Below, piece after piece: positions 42,374 to 47,804 of a stretch of DNA of 64,000 nt; positions within the stretch are counted from its first letter, which is position 1, and every line of letters begins with the position of its first letter. Source of the stretch: a virus (lineage: Duplodnaviria > Caudoviricetes); IMG/VR virus record IMGVR_UViG_3300035696_000004, positions 32,001 to 96,000 of that record; one strand, 5' to 3'. Under the pieces are notes generated by a model. That model made no database searches and was not told where the DNA came from. It saw nothing but the letters and a program-made list of their open reading frames with translations. Position numbers and translations under genes: made by a program.

Positions 42374-42655
42374 CTACCGCTCCGTATGGCTCTTGACAGC
42401 GACGGCTGCACTGACACTCAGGATCACACTGGACGATCCTGTTGCACCAGCAGCAAAACCAACGTAGTTGAAGCTCCCAGTCTTCAGGGTGCTATACACC
42501 GTCCCGAAGATAAACAATAGTGCGACAGCAATGCAAAACGGATACCCTACGACCCGTGCAGGATCGTAATCCCCATGCATAGTCGTGGCGCAGTCGTTGA
42601 TGACTTTATACAGGATCATTTTGAAACGATCCGTATCGATACCAAACAATTTCAT
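42374..42655 (-). CDS. small two-TM membrane protein
   Basis: Two hydrophobic helices; ATGA overlap with the AAA ATPase. Confidence 0.65.
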   Translation of the reverse strand: MKLFGIDTDRFKMILYKVINDCATTMHGDYDPARVVGYPFCIAVALLFIFGTVYSTLKTGSFNYVGFAAGATGSSSVILSVSAAVAVKSHTER

Positions 42656-43938
42656 GTTGATCCTTTCGTCACGAGTTCCCCGATGAAGGCAGCAGGGTCA
42701 TTTCGATGCTTCATGAATTTGGCTTGCAAGGTGCTTCCAGGGCAGTCTTCAAAAACCGCACCCTCAGGAACAACGCAGCCCGGAAATACCAGATCGATGT
42801 AACGACGAATCGCTTCATCATCCAGAGGCAGGATTTCGAACTGATGGTCGCATCGACCATCCCGCAAGATATTGTCAGCGATGATTTCTTTTCGATTGGT
42901 GGTGAGAAAGATCACTGTTCGATTGAGTTCTTGGACACCATCCAGCGTATTCAAAATTGTCGTTAACGAAACGCCATCGTCGAATAAGCTCCTGACCGAT
43001 TCTTTCCCGTAAGGATCGTAGGTCGTGATCGCATCACTATCAGGGTTATGAACAGCTGGAATTTTAACTTGGGCTCCGTTCTTGTGGGTAGCGGGGCAAG
43101 AGTCAAAATCTTCAATAGCCACGATACCGCCATACGCCATGGTCATCAGTTTCGGGAACATGGTGTCCGAGCAGGTATTCAGATTGACCGCGTACACGGA
43201 TCGATCGAAGTGCCCTGCGATACTTTTGATCAACGACGTCTTACCGGTTCCTGGAACACCGTATAAAAGGATGACGAGCTTGTACGGAATCCCCCGAAGC
43301 CGATACCAGGATTCACTGGCGTAGAATTCTTCGATCAGCTTGACGATGTCTTCTTTAGTGGTGTCCCGTGTCACAATGGTCGATAGTGGTCGCTTAGGAG
43401 CACCGACAGCAGCCGCGAAATTATAGCCTTCATTGGTGTGCACATAGGAGAGATCTTTCGCATATCGCCACCGGAAAGCCTTTGTCAAGTCCTCCATGAC
43501 TTTCTTCGATCGTGTCAGGCAGTAAATGACACTTTCCATCTTTTCTTTTTCCGTCCCTGTCGAAGCTAGACGTGAATTGACGACCCAGAAGAATCGTTTT
43601 TTGTAAAAGAAGAAGTGCGTGCCGTATCCGGGCACCAAGATACCTTCTTCGAGACCATAGTCTCCTTTGAAAAAGAATTCACGACTCAACGCTAGCAACG
43701 TTTTGTCTTTGACCCATATGTTGAATTCCTTGAACTCACGTTCAAACTCCGAGGTCGAATTATTGAGCATGATCGTGGACGTACAGGCTTTGAAGATCGT
43801 GCGTCCCAGTTGATTCGGTACGCTACGCAGAGCCCAGGTCAAAATACCACCGATCCAGATCCCGATAGCCCCCGATAACATCGGGTTGGATTTAGTGAGT
43901 GCGTAGAAGGATTGCATGAAAGAAAGTGGTGTACTCAT
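42652..43938 (-). CDS. BCS1-like membrane-anchored AAA+ ATPase
   Basis: N-terminal TM; BCS1_N-like PGYGTHFFFYKKRFFWV; Walker A GVPGTGKT; Walker B IEDFD; LLN-like ILNTLDGV; TTN; RDGRCD arginine finger. Confidence 0.8.
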   Translation of the reverse strand: MSTPLSFMQSFYALTKSNPMLSGAIGIWIGGILTWALRSVPNQLGRTIFKACTSTIMLNNSTSEFEREFKEFNIWVKDKTLLALSREFFFKGDYGLEEGILVPGYGTHFFFYKKRFFWVVNSRLASTGTEKEKMESVIYCLTRSKKVMEDLTKAFRWRYAKDLSYVHTNEGYNFAAAVGAPKRPLSTIVTRDTTKEDIVKLIEEFYASESWYRLRGIPYKLVILLYGVPGTGKTSLIKSIAGHFDRSVYAVNLNTCSDTMFPKLMTMAYGGIVAIEDFDSCPATHKNGAQVKIPAVHNPDSDAITTYDPYGKESVRSLFDDGVSLTTILNTLDGVQELNRTVIFLTTNRKEIIADNILRDGRCDHQFEILPLDDEAIRRYIDLVFPGCVVPEGAVFEDCPGSTLQAKFMKHRNDPAAFIGELVTKGST

Positions 43939-43996: not shown

Positions 43997-44023
43997 CATA
44001 GAGGAGACCCGAAGGCCTCCTCT
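43997..44023 (-). terminator. imperfect hairpin with A-run (U-tract on the minus strand)
   Basis: AGAGGAG..CTCCTCT preceded by an A-rich run. Confidence 0.55.
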
Positions 44024-44032
44024 AGACTGAGA

Positions 44033-44455
44033 TCAGGAGTCGTCACTTTCCAGTTTTACGACACTTTTAGGAAAGGGTGGATCACCTTCATTCTTTATTT
44101 CGAATACACCTTTCAGTTCGTGCAGGGGTGATGCACCCAGGAGATGCAAAATGGTGTACCAATCACCATCTCGCTCATCCCCGTGAACTCGCCATCCTTC
44201 ACGGGTTCGAATAAAGCACGCAACCGTCTTCATGTCATCATCGCGGATGACTAAGTACCGCCGCCCAAATAGTTCAAACTGCTGAATGTTTCCGCCGAGC
44301 CGTTCTACTTGGTCCATCATGGCGATAAAGGCAGCCCGAGAATTCAACTTGATGCTCTCGATCCGCGCTGCATTCTTGAACGATTTGTAGATGACGTAGA
44401 TCAGCAGGGCGTCGCTGATCCCGAGACAAATCATCAGAAAGGATACGATATTCAT
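44033..44455 (-). CDS. protein with an N-terminal membrane anchor
   Basis: Hydrophobic N-terminus; RBS AAGGA. Confidence 0.65.
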   Translation of the reverse strand: MNIVSFLMICLGISDALLIYVIYKSFKNAARIESIKLNSRAAFIAMMDQVERLGGNIQQFELFGRRYLVIRDDDMKTVACFIRTREGWRVHGDERDGDWYTILHLLGASPLHELKGVFEIKNEGDPPFPKSVVKLESDDS

Positions 44456-44467
44456 TTTCCGTCCTTT

Positions 44468-45442
44468 TTAAGGGTGTGACCAGGCATTCAAATAGTCACG
44501 ATCGCGGAAGGGTTCCACCAAGAACGCTTCATTAAACTGCTCAGCCTGCAAGAGGCGTTCACGAATCCTCCAGAGTTCTTCGGCCTGACACGCATGACCT
44601 TTCTGACCAAAGACATCCGAGAAGCCGGTTGCTTTTTTCAGAATTTCTTGGAGTTCGGGGTTTTCGTAGATGTAGAGTATCCAAAGATGCTCGTAATACT
44701 TCCGGCATTCCTGGATATTGATCGGGCATTTTCCTTTGGCTTCTTGCCAAGAGAGTCCGGTCTGACCTCCTTCAAACACTTTGTAGCGCTGATAGAGTGT
44801 TTCGATCGACATATTCCCATACTTCTTGACCCGTGCGTAAAACGCGCTGAGTCGACGATCCCCTTTACTGCTGCACTCGAGATACGGTGCCTCACCAAAA
44901 CGCAACATGTCATTTCCTTTCTTTACTAAGCGATCCGCAATCGCCACAATTTGATCATCTGTTAAGTCGTCGACATCCATCCCCGGTGGCAAGATATGGA
45001 ATCGATCAACGTGGTGCGCTAGTAGAAAACCCCCTGCATCCCCGTCGCACATAGAGAGCGTGCGGTTAGGAATCGCTCTAAACCATTGGGTGAGGTTTAG
45101 AGGGTCTGCCCCAAATACGGCAACAGCGTTATAGCCCAGCCGTTTTAGCCGATTTGCATCGAATATCCCCTCCTGAACAAATAAGGGCTTTTTCGGATCG
45201 TACGTTTCAAGACCCCACATACCGAGCTCAACATTATGCCATCGATACCGAGAGAGGTAGGTGTAGTATTTCGCCAATTTAGGGTTGTCGGGATTGTGTT
45301 TTGGATAGGACGGGTTGTAAACCTGGAAACCAATCAATTGTCCCGATAGATTCCAAACCAAAAAGGTTGCATCCACATCCGTCACTGTCAATCCAGGGTA
45401 ATCGTCAGGATTGAGATGTCTGGAGAGGAGGTGTTGATGCAT
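44468..45442 (-). CDS. Toprim primase-like domain fused in frame to a NADAR-like domain
   Basis: VQEGIFDA and CDGDAGG Toprim motifs; C-terminal LSAFY..SIE.LYQ.YKVF..ENPEL..SDVFG; internal RBS and ATG at 44908. Confidence 0.7.
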   Translation of the reverse strand: MHQHLLSRHLNPDDYPGLTVTDVDATFLVWNLSGQLIGFQVYNPSYPKHNPDNPKLAKYYTYLSRYRWHNVELGMWGLETYDPKKPLFVQEGIFDANRLKRLGYNAVAVFGADPLNLTQWFRAIPNRTLSMCDGDAGGFLLAHHVDRFHILPPGMDVDDLTDDQIVAIADRLVKKGNDMLRFGEAPYLECSSKGDRRLSAFYARVKKYGNMSIETLYQRYKVFEGGQTGLSWQEAKGKCPINIQECRKYYEHLWILYIYENPELQEILKKATGFSDVFGQKGHACQAEELWRIRERLLQAEQFNEAFLVEPFRDRDYLNAWSHP

Positions 45443-45902
45443 GTTCGAGTTCTTTCTTTCTTTTGGCTCTGAGAGCCTGTCGGGTGATCGACCGGCAATA
45501 GGGGCAATATCGGCGCGTCTGATTCCCTTTAGGCATACGCAAACGATGTCCTCGTTTGCAATAGTCTTTGGGACAAGTCCGACCTAGTCGCCATGTCAGA
45601 TTATCGAGCGTGATCGGCTGGTCCAGATCAACGATGGTTCCGACCTCACCTTTCACGGGCGGCCTGACAAACGTCGACAACATCAGAGCATAGAGCATCT
45701 TGCGACGATAGACACCATCGATGCAGAGGCTTACACCAGGATAACCCTGGGTGTCATACGTCACCTTGAGTATTTTACCGGGGAGCATCTGCCCGTGTCG
45801 ACCGATGTGTTCCTTTGAACGGAAGTTCCCTAAGTTGGAGATTTCGTAAATTCCTTCACTCCCATATGCGGGTTTCCAGATTTCATTCATATCGAGTGTC
45901 AT
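45405..45902 (-). CDS. NUMOD4 protein with degenerate HNH and a CKRGH/CxxC motif
   Basis: EIWKPAYGSEGIYEISNLGNFRS; paralog of the 16624 ORF. Confidence 0.75.
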   Translation of the reverse strand: MTLDMNEIWKPAYGSEGIYEISNLGNFRSKEHIGRHGQMLPGKILKVTYDTQGYPGVSLCIDGVYRRKMLYALMLSTFVRPPVKGEVGTIVDLDQPITLDNLTWRLGRTCPKDYCKRGHRLRMPKGNQTRRYCPYCRSITRQALRAKRKKELEHASTPPLQTSQS

Positions 45903-45938
45903 TCAGTGTTCCAAATAAAAAGTATGGATGGGTCATAA

Positions 45939-45960
45939 GGAGCAGCCCGAAGGCTGCTCC
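45939..45960 (-). terminator. hairpin ending the ribozyme-containing interval
   Basis: GGAGCAGCC-CGAA-GGCTGCTCC (UUCG loop on the minus strand). Confidence 0.7.
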
Positions 45961-46243
45961 CGTAGTATCACGTAAAGAGGCACTCCATTGCATCGTATTC
46001 CTCCACTGGCCATCTGGATCGATACGATGCAACAGGCTGCTTCCTAAAGCCAAGCTATTCGGGTGCGGCAACGGACCCGATGGCCAGACTCGTGTAGAAA
46101 ACAACTTCTCGGGGATAGCGCCCACGAGCGTACGATTAAGTCAGAAGCGGTCTCGCTACAAACCACTCCGACACCTCTGATGATACATCGTGAGGTCTCA
46201 TTTGCCGCTGCCACCGCCGCATCTCGGGCAAAATGGCGCGCGG

Positions 46244-46309
46244 CGCTTGACGCCACCAGATACGATGGCGTTTCGTTCCTTTATACGTGGCCGGAACTCA
46301 TCAGAAGCG
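46244..46309 (-). ncRNA. type I hammerhead ribozyme
   Basis: Minus strand CGCUU-CUGAUGA-GUUCC(loop 13)GGAAC-GAAA-CGCCA(loop 10)UGGCG-UC-AAGCG: all core nucleotides and three perfect 5-bp stems; predicted cleavage after GUC, between 46249 and 46248. Confidence 0.9.
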
Positions 46310-46368
46310 TAGCCTTGTGTCTGTGCACATCATTGCGTAGCTGTGTAAAAAACCACTCGCCGGACCTA

Positions 46369-46710
46369 CTACCCACGATCAATTTCGATCGTGGACGGGA
46401 TCACGCCATTCCCTTGGCCGAGGTAGCGAACGAGAGCGAATTCGATCGACTTGAGCGGGTTCGGATCGGATTCATCGATCAGGATGCGGTATACTTGTCG
46501 TTTCGGGGTATCCGGTTCGGCGTCAGCGGTTTGCTCGTCGCCGGTGCCCAGGATGGTCTTGACGATTTCTTTGGCACGTTCTTTGATCGTGCTGGAAATC
46601 TGTTCGTCGAGGGCGCCGAGGTCGTCCGCGATGTTCCGGACCCTAATCAGGGCGTCCAGCTCGACTTCCAGGGCTTCGAATTTTTGTTTGAGGGGTACGT
46701 GTACTTGCAT
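46369..46710 (-). CDS. hypothetical protein with an N-terminal coiled coil
   Basis: Start re-assigned to MQVHVP (46710) after AAAGAAAG; immediately upstream of the ribozyme. Confidence 0.65.
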   Translation of the reverse strand: MQVHVPLKQKFEALEVELDALIRVRNIADDLGALDEQISSTIKERAKEIVKTILGTGDEQTADAEPDTPKRQVYRILIDESDPNPLKSIEFALVRYLGQGNGVIPSTIEIDRG

Positions 46711-46772
46711 GGGTGTTTTCTTTCTTTCGTTGTGTGGAGTTTGGACATAGTAAAGCCAACTGATGTAAAAAA

Positions 46773-47003
46773 TCAGTCCGCTTTGTAGGTGTGGTATGCA
46801 CAGATCGTACAATACCTTCCCTCACCTGCGACTTGGGCGTATTTGAAATCATGCCCTTGTTCACCGCATTCTCGCTGGAGTTCTTCCAGTTCGAAACGAT
46901 GTGTGTTCGCGAGCTCTTGGCGTTCTTTGTCTTGCTTTGCGCGGAGACACGATACTCTCACCGCCATGATGGTCCTATGCGTCATCAATGCCATTCCATC
47001 CAC
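46773..47003 (-). CDS. small protein with a C..GH...C.IC motif
   Basis: ECGEQGHDF...YCTIC; start possibly at 46994. Confidence 0.6.
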   Translation of the reverse strand: MDGMALMTHRTIMAVRVSCLRAKQDKERQELANTHRFELEELQRECGEQGHDFKYAQVAGEGRYCTICAYHTYKAD

Positions 47004-47209
47004 CCTTCCGGAGGTTGAGTAGGGATTGATAACCCTTCGCTGTGGGATTCCGAGGCAGGACTGGACGAGCTTTCGCTTTCCTTTTTCTTTTTGTCTGCTT
47101 CGATAAACTCACGTGCGACCTTCTGGTCAATTCCATGGGCATCAGCGAACTCTTTATCATGAGCGGCGATCTCCATGAACTTGTGCTGCTTTTCCGATTT
47201 GCTAGGCAT
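46985..47209 (-). CDS. small phage protein (MPSKS..Q..FM..AAH family)
   Basis: Motif recalled from many phages; RBS GGAG; start re-assigned. Confidence 0.7.
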   Translation of the reverse strand: MPSKSEKQHKFMEIAAHDKEFADAHGIDQKVAREFIEADKKKKESESSSSPASESHSEGLSIPTQPPEGWMEWH

Positions 47210-47223
47210 TTTCGTTCTCCTCG

Positions 47224-47517
47224 TTACGAGGTTAGAAAACCCAACTCCTCCACGGCAACCTTGAAGGACTTGTTCTTCTGGGGTTCCAACGGGAAGTGCC
47301 CCCAGCGCACCCATTGCGTCGTCACATACGGGTCTGTAATGACGGCGTCGGTATTCGGTACGGCTTTCGCCAGCACAGATGGATCATCCAGCCTCGATAC
47401 CAAACGAGGGACACCCGTCGTGCCCCATTGTTCGGCGACATCCAGACACTCGATTCCGGATTCGAGAATCGTTCCGTCCTCTTTCAGGAACGTCACGAAA
47501 ATAGTCGGGTCGCTCAT
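47224..47517 (-). CDS. hypothetical protein
   Basis: Co-directional ORF; ATGA overlap. Confidence 0.6.
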   Translation of the reverse strand: MSDPTIFVTFLKEDGTILESGIECLDVAEQWGTTGVPRLVSRLDDPSVLAKAVPNTDAVITDPYVTTQWVRWGHFPLEPQKNKSFKVAVEELGFLTS

Positions 47518-47804
47518 TGGAGTGCTTTCGTAACATCACCCAGTAACCCGAGTGCTTTCTGTACCAGAGGAAGATCGCGTTCAGGATCACTAGGGATCCC
47601 CAGGCTGTCAGACGCACCGAAGACACTGACTTCGAACGTCGACTTGTCAATCATCAGGAAACCCGCGGATACCGCATCACGACCCCGGAAGAAAGACGCT
47701 ATGTCGTAATGGCTGACACTACGAGGAAAGACCAGAGCGATGAGGTTTTCCCCGTCAATCGATCCGGTGACGTATTTCCCTTGAATGCATGGATCACTGT
47801 ACAT
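47514..47804 (-). CDS. hypothetical protein
   Basis: FP..VSH.D...VSAGF...FG.SDSLGIPS.PERD motif recalled from phage proteins. Confidence 0.7.
   Translation of the reverse strand: MYSDPCIQGKYVTGSIDGENLIALVFPRSVSHYDIASFFRGRDAVSAGFLMIDKSTFEVSVFGASDSLGIPSDPERDLPLVQKALGLLGDVTKALQ

Follow-up and report, generated by a model that had tools for sequence, protein, structure and literature searches.

A DnaG-type primase core joined in frame to a NADAR domain in a peat jumbo phage: a lineage-specific candidate anti-DarT1 fusion

We analyzed a 64,000-nucleotide stretch of virus DNA (hereafter the window) taken from a virus genome of 219,772 bp (bases 32001-96000; IMG/VR record IMGVR_UViG_3300035696_000004), which has direct terminal repeats and is judged complete. 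The gene under study is an open reading frame (ORF) on the minus strand at 44468-45442, in which a primase-like N-terminal half is followed directly by a NADAR domain. An earlier note, made from the sequence alone, had described it as a single ORF, and this is what we found: 324 codons plus a stop codon, with no internal stop. The motifs named in that note were located at residues 91-95 (EGIFD), 133-135 (DGD), 188-192 (LECSS), 212-214 (SIE), 220-223 (YKVF) and 275-279 (SDVFG). The presence of a primase-core/NADAR fusion gene is confirmed.

A second ENA contig, of 91 kb, also encodes this product, called there as a 305-aa protein that starts at a GTG 19 codons downstream, and this contig keeps the order of neighboring genes (NUMOD4 gene, fusion, 140-aa ORF, BCS1-like AAA ATPase). 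The junction, for which the earlier note had raised the prospect of a stop codon or an assembly error, is covered without a single difference or gap by contigs of three metagenome runs from peat, which belong to three studies; one of the runs may be the source of the record. Given the second assembly and the junction-identical contigs, an assembly or sequencing artefact at this position is very unlikely. The true start is an ATG at 45442, which corrects the downstream GTG chosen by the gene caller, since 50 homologs align from residue 1, R8 is invariant, and the conserved residues H4, L5 and R8 all lie upstream of the GTG. With this start, the first 38 nt of the fusion gene are shared with the NUMOD4/HNH gene upstream. 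A PDB search with the single fusion sequence returned only a chance match to ferritin, and a full-length AlphaFold2 (AF2) model built from a mixed alignment had a predicted local distance difference test (pLDDT) score below 50 at residues 62-150 and was set aside as a guide to the Toprim core and to how the domains pack.

The N-terminal domain (residues 1-178; 44909-45442, minus strand) is related to the catalytic core of DnaG-type primases and comprises primase motifs plus Toprim. Residues 2-176 matched phrog_849 (DNA primase) at 2e-28, covering only positions 150-343 of the 435-position profile. A family profile made from the query domain and 49 homologs (alignment A3) had no PDB matches other than the cores of DnaG primases (3B39, 1EQN, 1DD9, 5VAZ, 4E2K and 2AU3; E 2e-4 to 8e-3), and Pfam Toprim_2 was matched by 23 of the 50 proteins in this alignment. 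The acidic residues of Toprim are intact (E91, D95, D133, D135 and D156). E91/D95 and D133/D135 align to the E-G-x-x-D and D-G-D motifs of DnaG in 3B39, and a KY-x-N/T motif aligns to E. coli DnaG. Residues R8, G38, Y42, K48, Y59, G77, E91, G92, F94 and D156 are invariant in the family alignment. Together with the absence of a Cys/His zinc cluster from this half, the profile matches bear out the earlier description of a Toprim/DnaG-type core that has no zinc-binding domain.

Dozens of stand-alone relatives of 171-200 aa, from phages and metagenomes, align with this half from residue 1 to approximately residue 175; they include a "DNA primase" of Escherichia phage vB_Eco_K-02 (171 aa) and a protein of Vibrio phage eugene (173 aa). 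Since these proteins span the same region, the N-terminal half represents a complete gene and not a truncated primase. Adjacent stand-alone zinc ribbons are rare beside such relatives, as 2 of 155 small neighbors resemble one. We regard the half as a homolog of the DnaG catalytic core for which a role as a "primase" is doubtful. When the Toprim domain was co-folded with the DnaB-like helicase of the phage (window 26113-27669), the score was 0.00 (mark 0.32), a result that weighs neither for nor against binding.

The C-terminal domain had been proposed to be a NADAR, and profile, fold and catalytic residues agree on this assignment. The core (residues 179-296; 44555-44908, minus strand) matched phrog_9995, a family of unknown function, at 2.7e-31, and Pfam NADAR-DarT1 (PF22397) at 32.4 bits against a curated cut-off of 27 (33.5 bits summed in the genome search); relatives reach 55.9 bits on PF22397 over profile positions 46-201 of 212. 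A 60-member profile (A1) matched the DarT1-associated NADAR of Geobacter lovleyi, 8BAT, at E 4e-6, and the S-I/V-E..Q..K, EAK and S/T-D motifs coincide in this alignment. An AF2 model of the core on its family alignment had a predicted pLDDT of 91, and the top two matches of this model in Foldseek were 8BAT and YbiA (2B3W). A Foldseek-independent comparison with 48,161 chains ranked the three solved NADARs as the top three fold matches: 8BAT at Z 11.1 (126 aa, 3.4 A), YbiA 2B3W at Z 8.3 and 8BAU at Z 7.0, with the next chain at Z 4.3. The remaining C-terminal tail (residues 297-324; 44471-44554, minus strand) is unconserved, has a pLDDT of 54-60, and belongs to a region that varies among relatives.

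Catalytic-type residues were identified by motif alignment as E214 (44801-44803), K221 (44780-44782) and D276 (44615-44617), all on the minus strand. In the NADAR of E. coli C7, residues E88, K95 and D171 are needed for guanine-ADP-ribose (ADPr) hydrolysis and for DarT1 rescue (PMC11543638), and they correspond to E214, K221 and D276 in a mapping to C7 numbering made by motif, following the same study. K221 sits at +7 from E214, the spacing of E88/K95, and D276 (S-D-V-F-G) aligns with T-D-I-E of 8BAT; conservation of E214 and D276 reaches 90% or more across 90 aligned sequences. The lysine K236, part of a conserved EAK motif, aligns with an EAK motif of 8BAT. The presence of Asp at the distinguishing position, where T4 gp30.3 has His, places the domain in the DarT1-linked BC4488 branch (PMC11125620). 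The flanking ORFs that were scanned contained no DarT gene and no ADP-ribosyltransferase (ART) domain, and since no DarT1 gene is adjacent the NADAR is an orphan, as in AdfN.

The domain belongs to a compact NADAR clade defined by phrog_9995, which comprised 345 representative clusters (E <= 0.001) in a representative search of 1.8 billion proteins. We know of no member of this clade that has been tested. Longer members are fused instead to YpsA/YAcAr SLOG, Macro, DprA-like, DUF4326 or DUF488 domains, and such partners (SLOG, Macro, DprA-like and others) have already been described for viral ADP-ribose-processing domains (PMC9503650, PMC7824862). Cys-rich, zinc-ribbon-like segments occur in 8 of 149 relatives of the clade (including P0091, P0114, P0117, P0120 and P0131), mostly after the NADAR core; these could be nucleic-acid-binding add-ons, and are too few to build on. 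The clade is also present in genomes of Alphaproteobacteria (Microvirga, Rhizobium, Bosea, Methylobacterium and Bradyrhizobium; loci L180-L199), where the copies probably sit in prophages. This occurrence matches the presence of the clade in Rhizobium and Sinorhizobium phages such as 16-3.

The point at which the two halves meet coincides with the start of stand-alone NADAR proteins. Among the 150 homologs listed, most align their own residue 1 to M179, which is encoded by an internal ATG at 44906-44908 (minus strand) at which a stand-alone NADAR gene formerly began, and the C-termini of Toprim relatives fall at most a few residues from position 178. In P0003, the nearest relative found (encoded by a related 221-kb phage), the NADAR block begins at its own M76 (ML-R...) and shares 65% identity. 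The earlier note had also claimed a Shine-Dalgarno (SD) sequence and an ATG at 44908 for the second domain, and both are present: the sequence preceding the ATG is AAAGAAAGGAAATGAC, which includes an SD-like AAAGGAA (44914-44921, minus strand) with AGGA at -10 to -7, and M179 is where stand-alone relatives start. In this genome, AGGA, GGAG or GAGG at -16 to -4 accompanies 47% of 208 gene starts vs. 3.7% (44/1199) of internal in-frame ATGs. Within 25 nt upstream of the internal ATG, both alternative frames carry stops (TAG and TAA in one, TGA in the other).

Taken together, the homolog starts at M179, the end of Toprim near residue 178 and the retained SD argue that the junction is a former gene boundary. 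We interpret the fusion as two complete genes welded end to start without a linker, the connection being five residues long, and the retained SD and ATG make internal initiation plausible.

Judged from its genes, the source is an uncultured peat jumbo phage of approximately 220 kb and of the chimallivirus (phiKZ-like, nucleus-forming) type. Outside the window, the genome carries a chimallin homolog, a 636-aa frame at C1:181151-183058 (minus strand) that was matched by phiKZ gp54 at 1e-20 in phmmer and with 22% identity over 461 aa in tblastn; this homolog was detectable only by phmmer or with low-complexity filtering off. A PhuZ/TubZ-like tubulin homolog lies at C1:192547-193329 (minus strand), also outside the window, and the two proteins together indicate a nucleus-forming phage. 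The phiKZ-type major capsid protein matched 254 phiKZ-like records, the best at 53% to Burkholderia phage FLC9, and a phiKZ-type DnaB-like helicase gene adjoins the capsid gene in an arrangement like that of phiKZ. Megablast of 40-50 kb of the window against the phage collection gave no match, and a search of viral contigs found no close relative of the fusion protein. PhiKZ-type jumbo phages have been reported to be without DnaG-type Toprim primases (Iyer et al., PMC7824862), which suggests that the N-terminal half is an accessory acquisition as opposed to core replication machinery.

The genome also encodes a 152-aa macrodomain protein (C1:148839-149282, minus strand; locus L172:1447-1905; outside the window) with 33% identity to phiKZ gp104 (E 3e-21) and homologs in many phiKZ-like Pseudomonas and Erwinia phages. 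PhiKZ gp104, or AdfM, is a nuclear macrodomain that removes DarT2 adducts (PMC13309987). The homolog found here is a candidate anti-DarT2 factor that would complement the NADAR, and the phage thus appears to carry candidate erasers, a macrodomain and a NADAR, for both known DarT chemistries.

Immediately upstream of the fusion is a homing-endonuclease-like gene of the NUMOD4/HNH type (45405-45902, minus strand), identified by a NUMOD4 match at 5.5e-13 and by matches to PHROG HNH endonuclease families; NUMOD4 was the only Pfam domain detected in it, with no HNH Pfam domain. Beyond this gene, approximately 460 nt at window 45903-46368 contain no convincing ORF on the gene strand. Downstream lie a 140-aa ORF (44033-44455, minus strand), for which family scans gave no match, and a 428-aa protein with BCS1_N and AAA ATPase domains (42652-43938, minus strand; phrog_7485, 4e-105), an unusual pair for a phage. 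Rfam gave no match at gathering scores over the whole window, and no intron or other RNA was found at E <= 1 over 44000-47600.

We consider it reasonably likely that the gene is a genuine, lineage-specific fusion in which an orphan anti-DarT1-type DNA de-ADP-ribosylase, similar to AdfN, was recently joined to an accessory primase-like protein. Orphan NADARs of phages (AdfN: T4 gp30.3, AdfN-Bas32 and AdfN-Bas60) neutralize DarTG1 (PMC11825919), so that phage NADAR counter-defense would be the known part of this account, and the architecture with a primase-like core, found nowhere else, the new part. The fusion would have arisen when one mutation, a stop-loss or a frameshift, joined two neighboring genes. 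Its NADAR would remove ADP-ribose that DarT1-like host toxins set on guanines of phage single-stranded DNA (ssDNA). Translation would probably start at both 45442 and 44908, to give the fusion protein and a free NADAR. In the least supported step, the primase-like half may hold the NADAR on single-stranded phage DNA.

Production of two proteins and tethering to the replication fork, both put forward in the earlier note, are plausible. Three points make tethering attractive: ssDNA is the substrate of DarT1; T4 AdfN is fully active only in T-even infection and requires a phage factor (PMC11825919); and a NADAR in the rpsU-dnaG-rpoD operon of pathogenic E. coli partly rescues DarT1 toxicity (PMC11125620). 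Among neighbors of the compact NADAR clade there is a lean to DNA metabolism (5′-3′ exonuclease, RNase H, uracil-DNA glycosylase, helicases, a DnaG zinc ribbon with DnaB, methylase and HNH). The neighbor counts, here and for the Toprim relatives below, are small and have no matched control, and we treat them as leads.

Several observations weigh against this account. With respect to the primase-like half, the primase zinc ribbons PF01807 and PF08273 were not found anywhere in the genome (E <= 1), and the protein likewise has neither a helicase-binding domain nor a fused helicase, as the Toprim family ends near residue 178 and NADAR follows directly. The 60 nearest large neighbors of distinct Toprim-only genes include no replication proteins; they do include CCA-adding enzyme (3/60), HD domains (3), T4-type RNA ligase 1 (2) and PNKP phosphatase (2), and some Toprim-only contigs have NAMPT, NMNAT-Nudix, Nudix, a weak Macro match or Tad3 nearby. 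In the Vibrio phages eugene and helene, the gene next to the Toprim relative is a tRNA nucleotidyltransferase; in T5-like phages it is a tRNA gene. The stand-alone, zinc-finger-less DnaG-core proteins of large phages are not neighbors of helicases or polymerases, and their real function may not be replicative priming. With respect to the NADAR half, the canonical YbiA-type model PF08719 was matched nowhere in the genome (E <= 0.1), and the domain is approximately 120 aa long vs. 160-210 in characterized NADARs, so that its substrate range may differ. NADARs have also been credited with acting on soluble ADP-ribose derivatives and RNA-repair by-products (PMC9503650), and recently with acting on cytidine-ADPr (PMC12945103).

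The pairing itself is rare, which also counts against the account. A search of 5.8 billion clusters, restricted to proteins of 178-567 aa, returned no other protein spanning both halves. Scans of 80 viral NADAR loci, 80 viral Toprim loci and 21 prokaryotic loci, each with 3-4 kb of flank, never revealed the other domain (0/181). Positive controls were recovered in 80/80 loci of each viral set, and the NADAR model matched 21/21 prokaryotic loci; alignment A1 was too diverse for these scans and A4 was used in its place. A single viral contig contained both genes, approximately 15 kb apart, and the nearest relative found (the related 221-kb phage, locus L005) has a NADAR without a Toprim gene nearby. 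With 0/181 loci and no second full-length match, we conclude that the fusion, known from a single uncultured lineage, is a lineage-specific event and not a recurrent architecture, and that any selection for the fused state would be hypothetical.

This rarity lends weight to a more modest explanation, which we rate as a lesser but serious possibility: two unrelated adjacent accessory genes may have been welded by one stop-loss or frameshift without consequence, leaving the free NADAR as the main worker and the fused form non-targeting and maybe transient. A singleton found in none of 181 related loci, an end-to-start join that kept the internal SD and ATG and has stops in both other frames, and a nearest relative whose NADAR has no Toprim gene nearby are all what such an accident would leave behind. 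On the other hand, the fused allele is the sole one in three peat metagenome studies and its junction is invariant, and every family-invariant residue has been kept in both halves. The independent linkage of a NADAR to primase in the E. coli rpsU-dnaG-rpoD operon (PMC11125620), and the need of T4 AdfN for a phage factor (PMC11825919), which keeps recruitment by a phage protein a live idea, likewise speak against mere accident. That the junction might be a sequencing or assembly error, or the gene a primase split by the upstream HNH element from a zinc-finger exon elsewhere, has a probability close to negligible. A homing-endonuclease-like gene does abut and overlap the 5′ end, and A-rich sequence surrounds the junction; nevertheless, the junction is identical in contigs of three studies and in a second assembly, and the 50 stand-alone homologs share the start Met together with conserved H4, L5 and R8. 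As no zinc ribbon was found upstream or in the genome and Rfam revealed no intron in 44000-47600, the split-gene version was rejected.

The genes beside stand-alone Toprim relatives (CCA-adding enzyme, RNA ligase, PNKP phosphatase, HD domains, and tRNA nucleotidyltransferase or tRNA genes) suggest a role of a different kind, in which the Toprim half belongs to an RNA-repair or tRNA-maintenance kit and the NADAR clears ADPr derivatives, such as those from Tpt1/KptA RNA end healing, NAD caps or ADPr-derived immune signals, and not DNA adducts. The NAMPT, NMNAT-Nudix and Macro genes in other contigs and the argument that phage NADARs target mostly soluble ADPr derivatives (PMC9503650) fit with it. 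We nonetheless consider this role unlikely. All phage NADARs tested so far act on guanine-ADPr DNA and counter DarTG1 (PMC11825919, PMC11125620), the domain is closest in both sequence and fold to the DarT1-associated antitoxin 8BAT, and the neighbors of its clade are DNA-metabolism genes; moreover, the N-terminal half resembles primases and not RNase M5 or OLD Toprim nucleases, and the Toprim neighbor counts carry the limits noted above. It is also quite unlikely, at the opposite extreme, that the fusion is an adaptive module for tolerance or repair of ADP-ribose lesions, in which the DnaG core would bind, and possibly re-prime on, ssDNA in the phage nucleus and so carry the NADAR to the substrate of DarT1, maybe aiding its import. 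If true, it would explain both the partner need of phage NADARs such as T4 AdfN and the NADAR in the bacterial dnaG operon. The lineage-specific fusion of an AdfN-like enzyme to an accessory primase-like protein remains the reading that we prefer.

Erasure of DarT1 damage by phage NADARs was first described in 2025, and full activity of T4 AdfN is confined to T-even infection (PMC11825919). A NADAR linked covalently to a primase-type ssDNA enzyme points to a testable answer to what directs these enzymes to phage DNA, namely recruitment via the priming or replication apparatus. The same link is echoed independently by the NADAR located in the rpsU-dnaG-rpoD operon of E. coli. The gene also puts a DnaG-type core into a phiKZ-type genome, a group reported to be without such primases, and a chimallivirus-like phage with both macrodomain and NADAR genes would hold candidate counters to the two known DarT classes. 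Within the limit of a single uncultured lineage, the fusion is a convenient entry point to the compact phrog_9995 clade.

Like AdfN, the putative enzyme is a phage-encoded NADAR with no toxin partner. It has the same fold and keeps the Glu and Lys of S-x-E..Q..K, and guanine de-ADP-ribosylation of DNA would be its expected activity; unlike AdfN, it belongs to a shorter clade (phrog_9995, approximately 120 aa), has Asp in place of the His of T4-type gp30.3 (PMC11125620), and is fused to a primase-like core. The DarG1/DarT1-associated antitoxins (E. coli C7, 8BAT; PF22397; PMC11543638) are its best match in sequence (E 4e-6) and fold (Z 11.1, 126 residues), and the equivalents of E88/K95/D171 and the EAK lysine are present. 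It differs from them in that it has no adjacent DarT gene, is approximately 40% shorter than 8BAT (219 residues), and is phage-borne and fused.

The N-terminal half has the pre-Toprim primase motifs, the Glu of EGIFD and the DGD motif in common with DnaG of E. coli (3B39/1DD9) and with the DnaG Toprim proteins that occur by themselves in jumbo phages (PMC7824862). In contrast to DnaG, it has no zinc-binding or helicase-binding domain, it resides in a phiKZ-type genome, and its relatives lie outside replication modules. AdfM (PMC13309987) parallels the role predicted for the fusion, in that it counters DarT for a nucleus-forming phage and has to do so on the phage's own DNA, and it has a homolog in this genome. 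AdfM differs in its unrelated macro fold, targets thymidine-ADPr and is unfused. The NADAR of the sigma-70/dnaG operon in pathogenic E. coli (PMC11125620) is an operon neighbor rather than a fusion partner, is bacterial, and is of a different NADAR subtype; what it shares with the peat phage gene is that it, too, ties a NADAR genetically to a DnaG-type primase, and does so independently.

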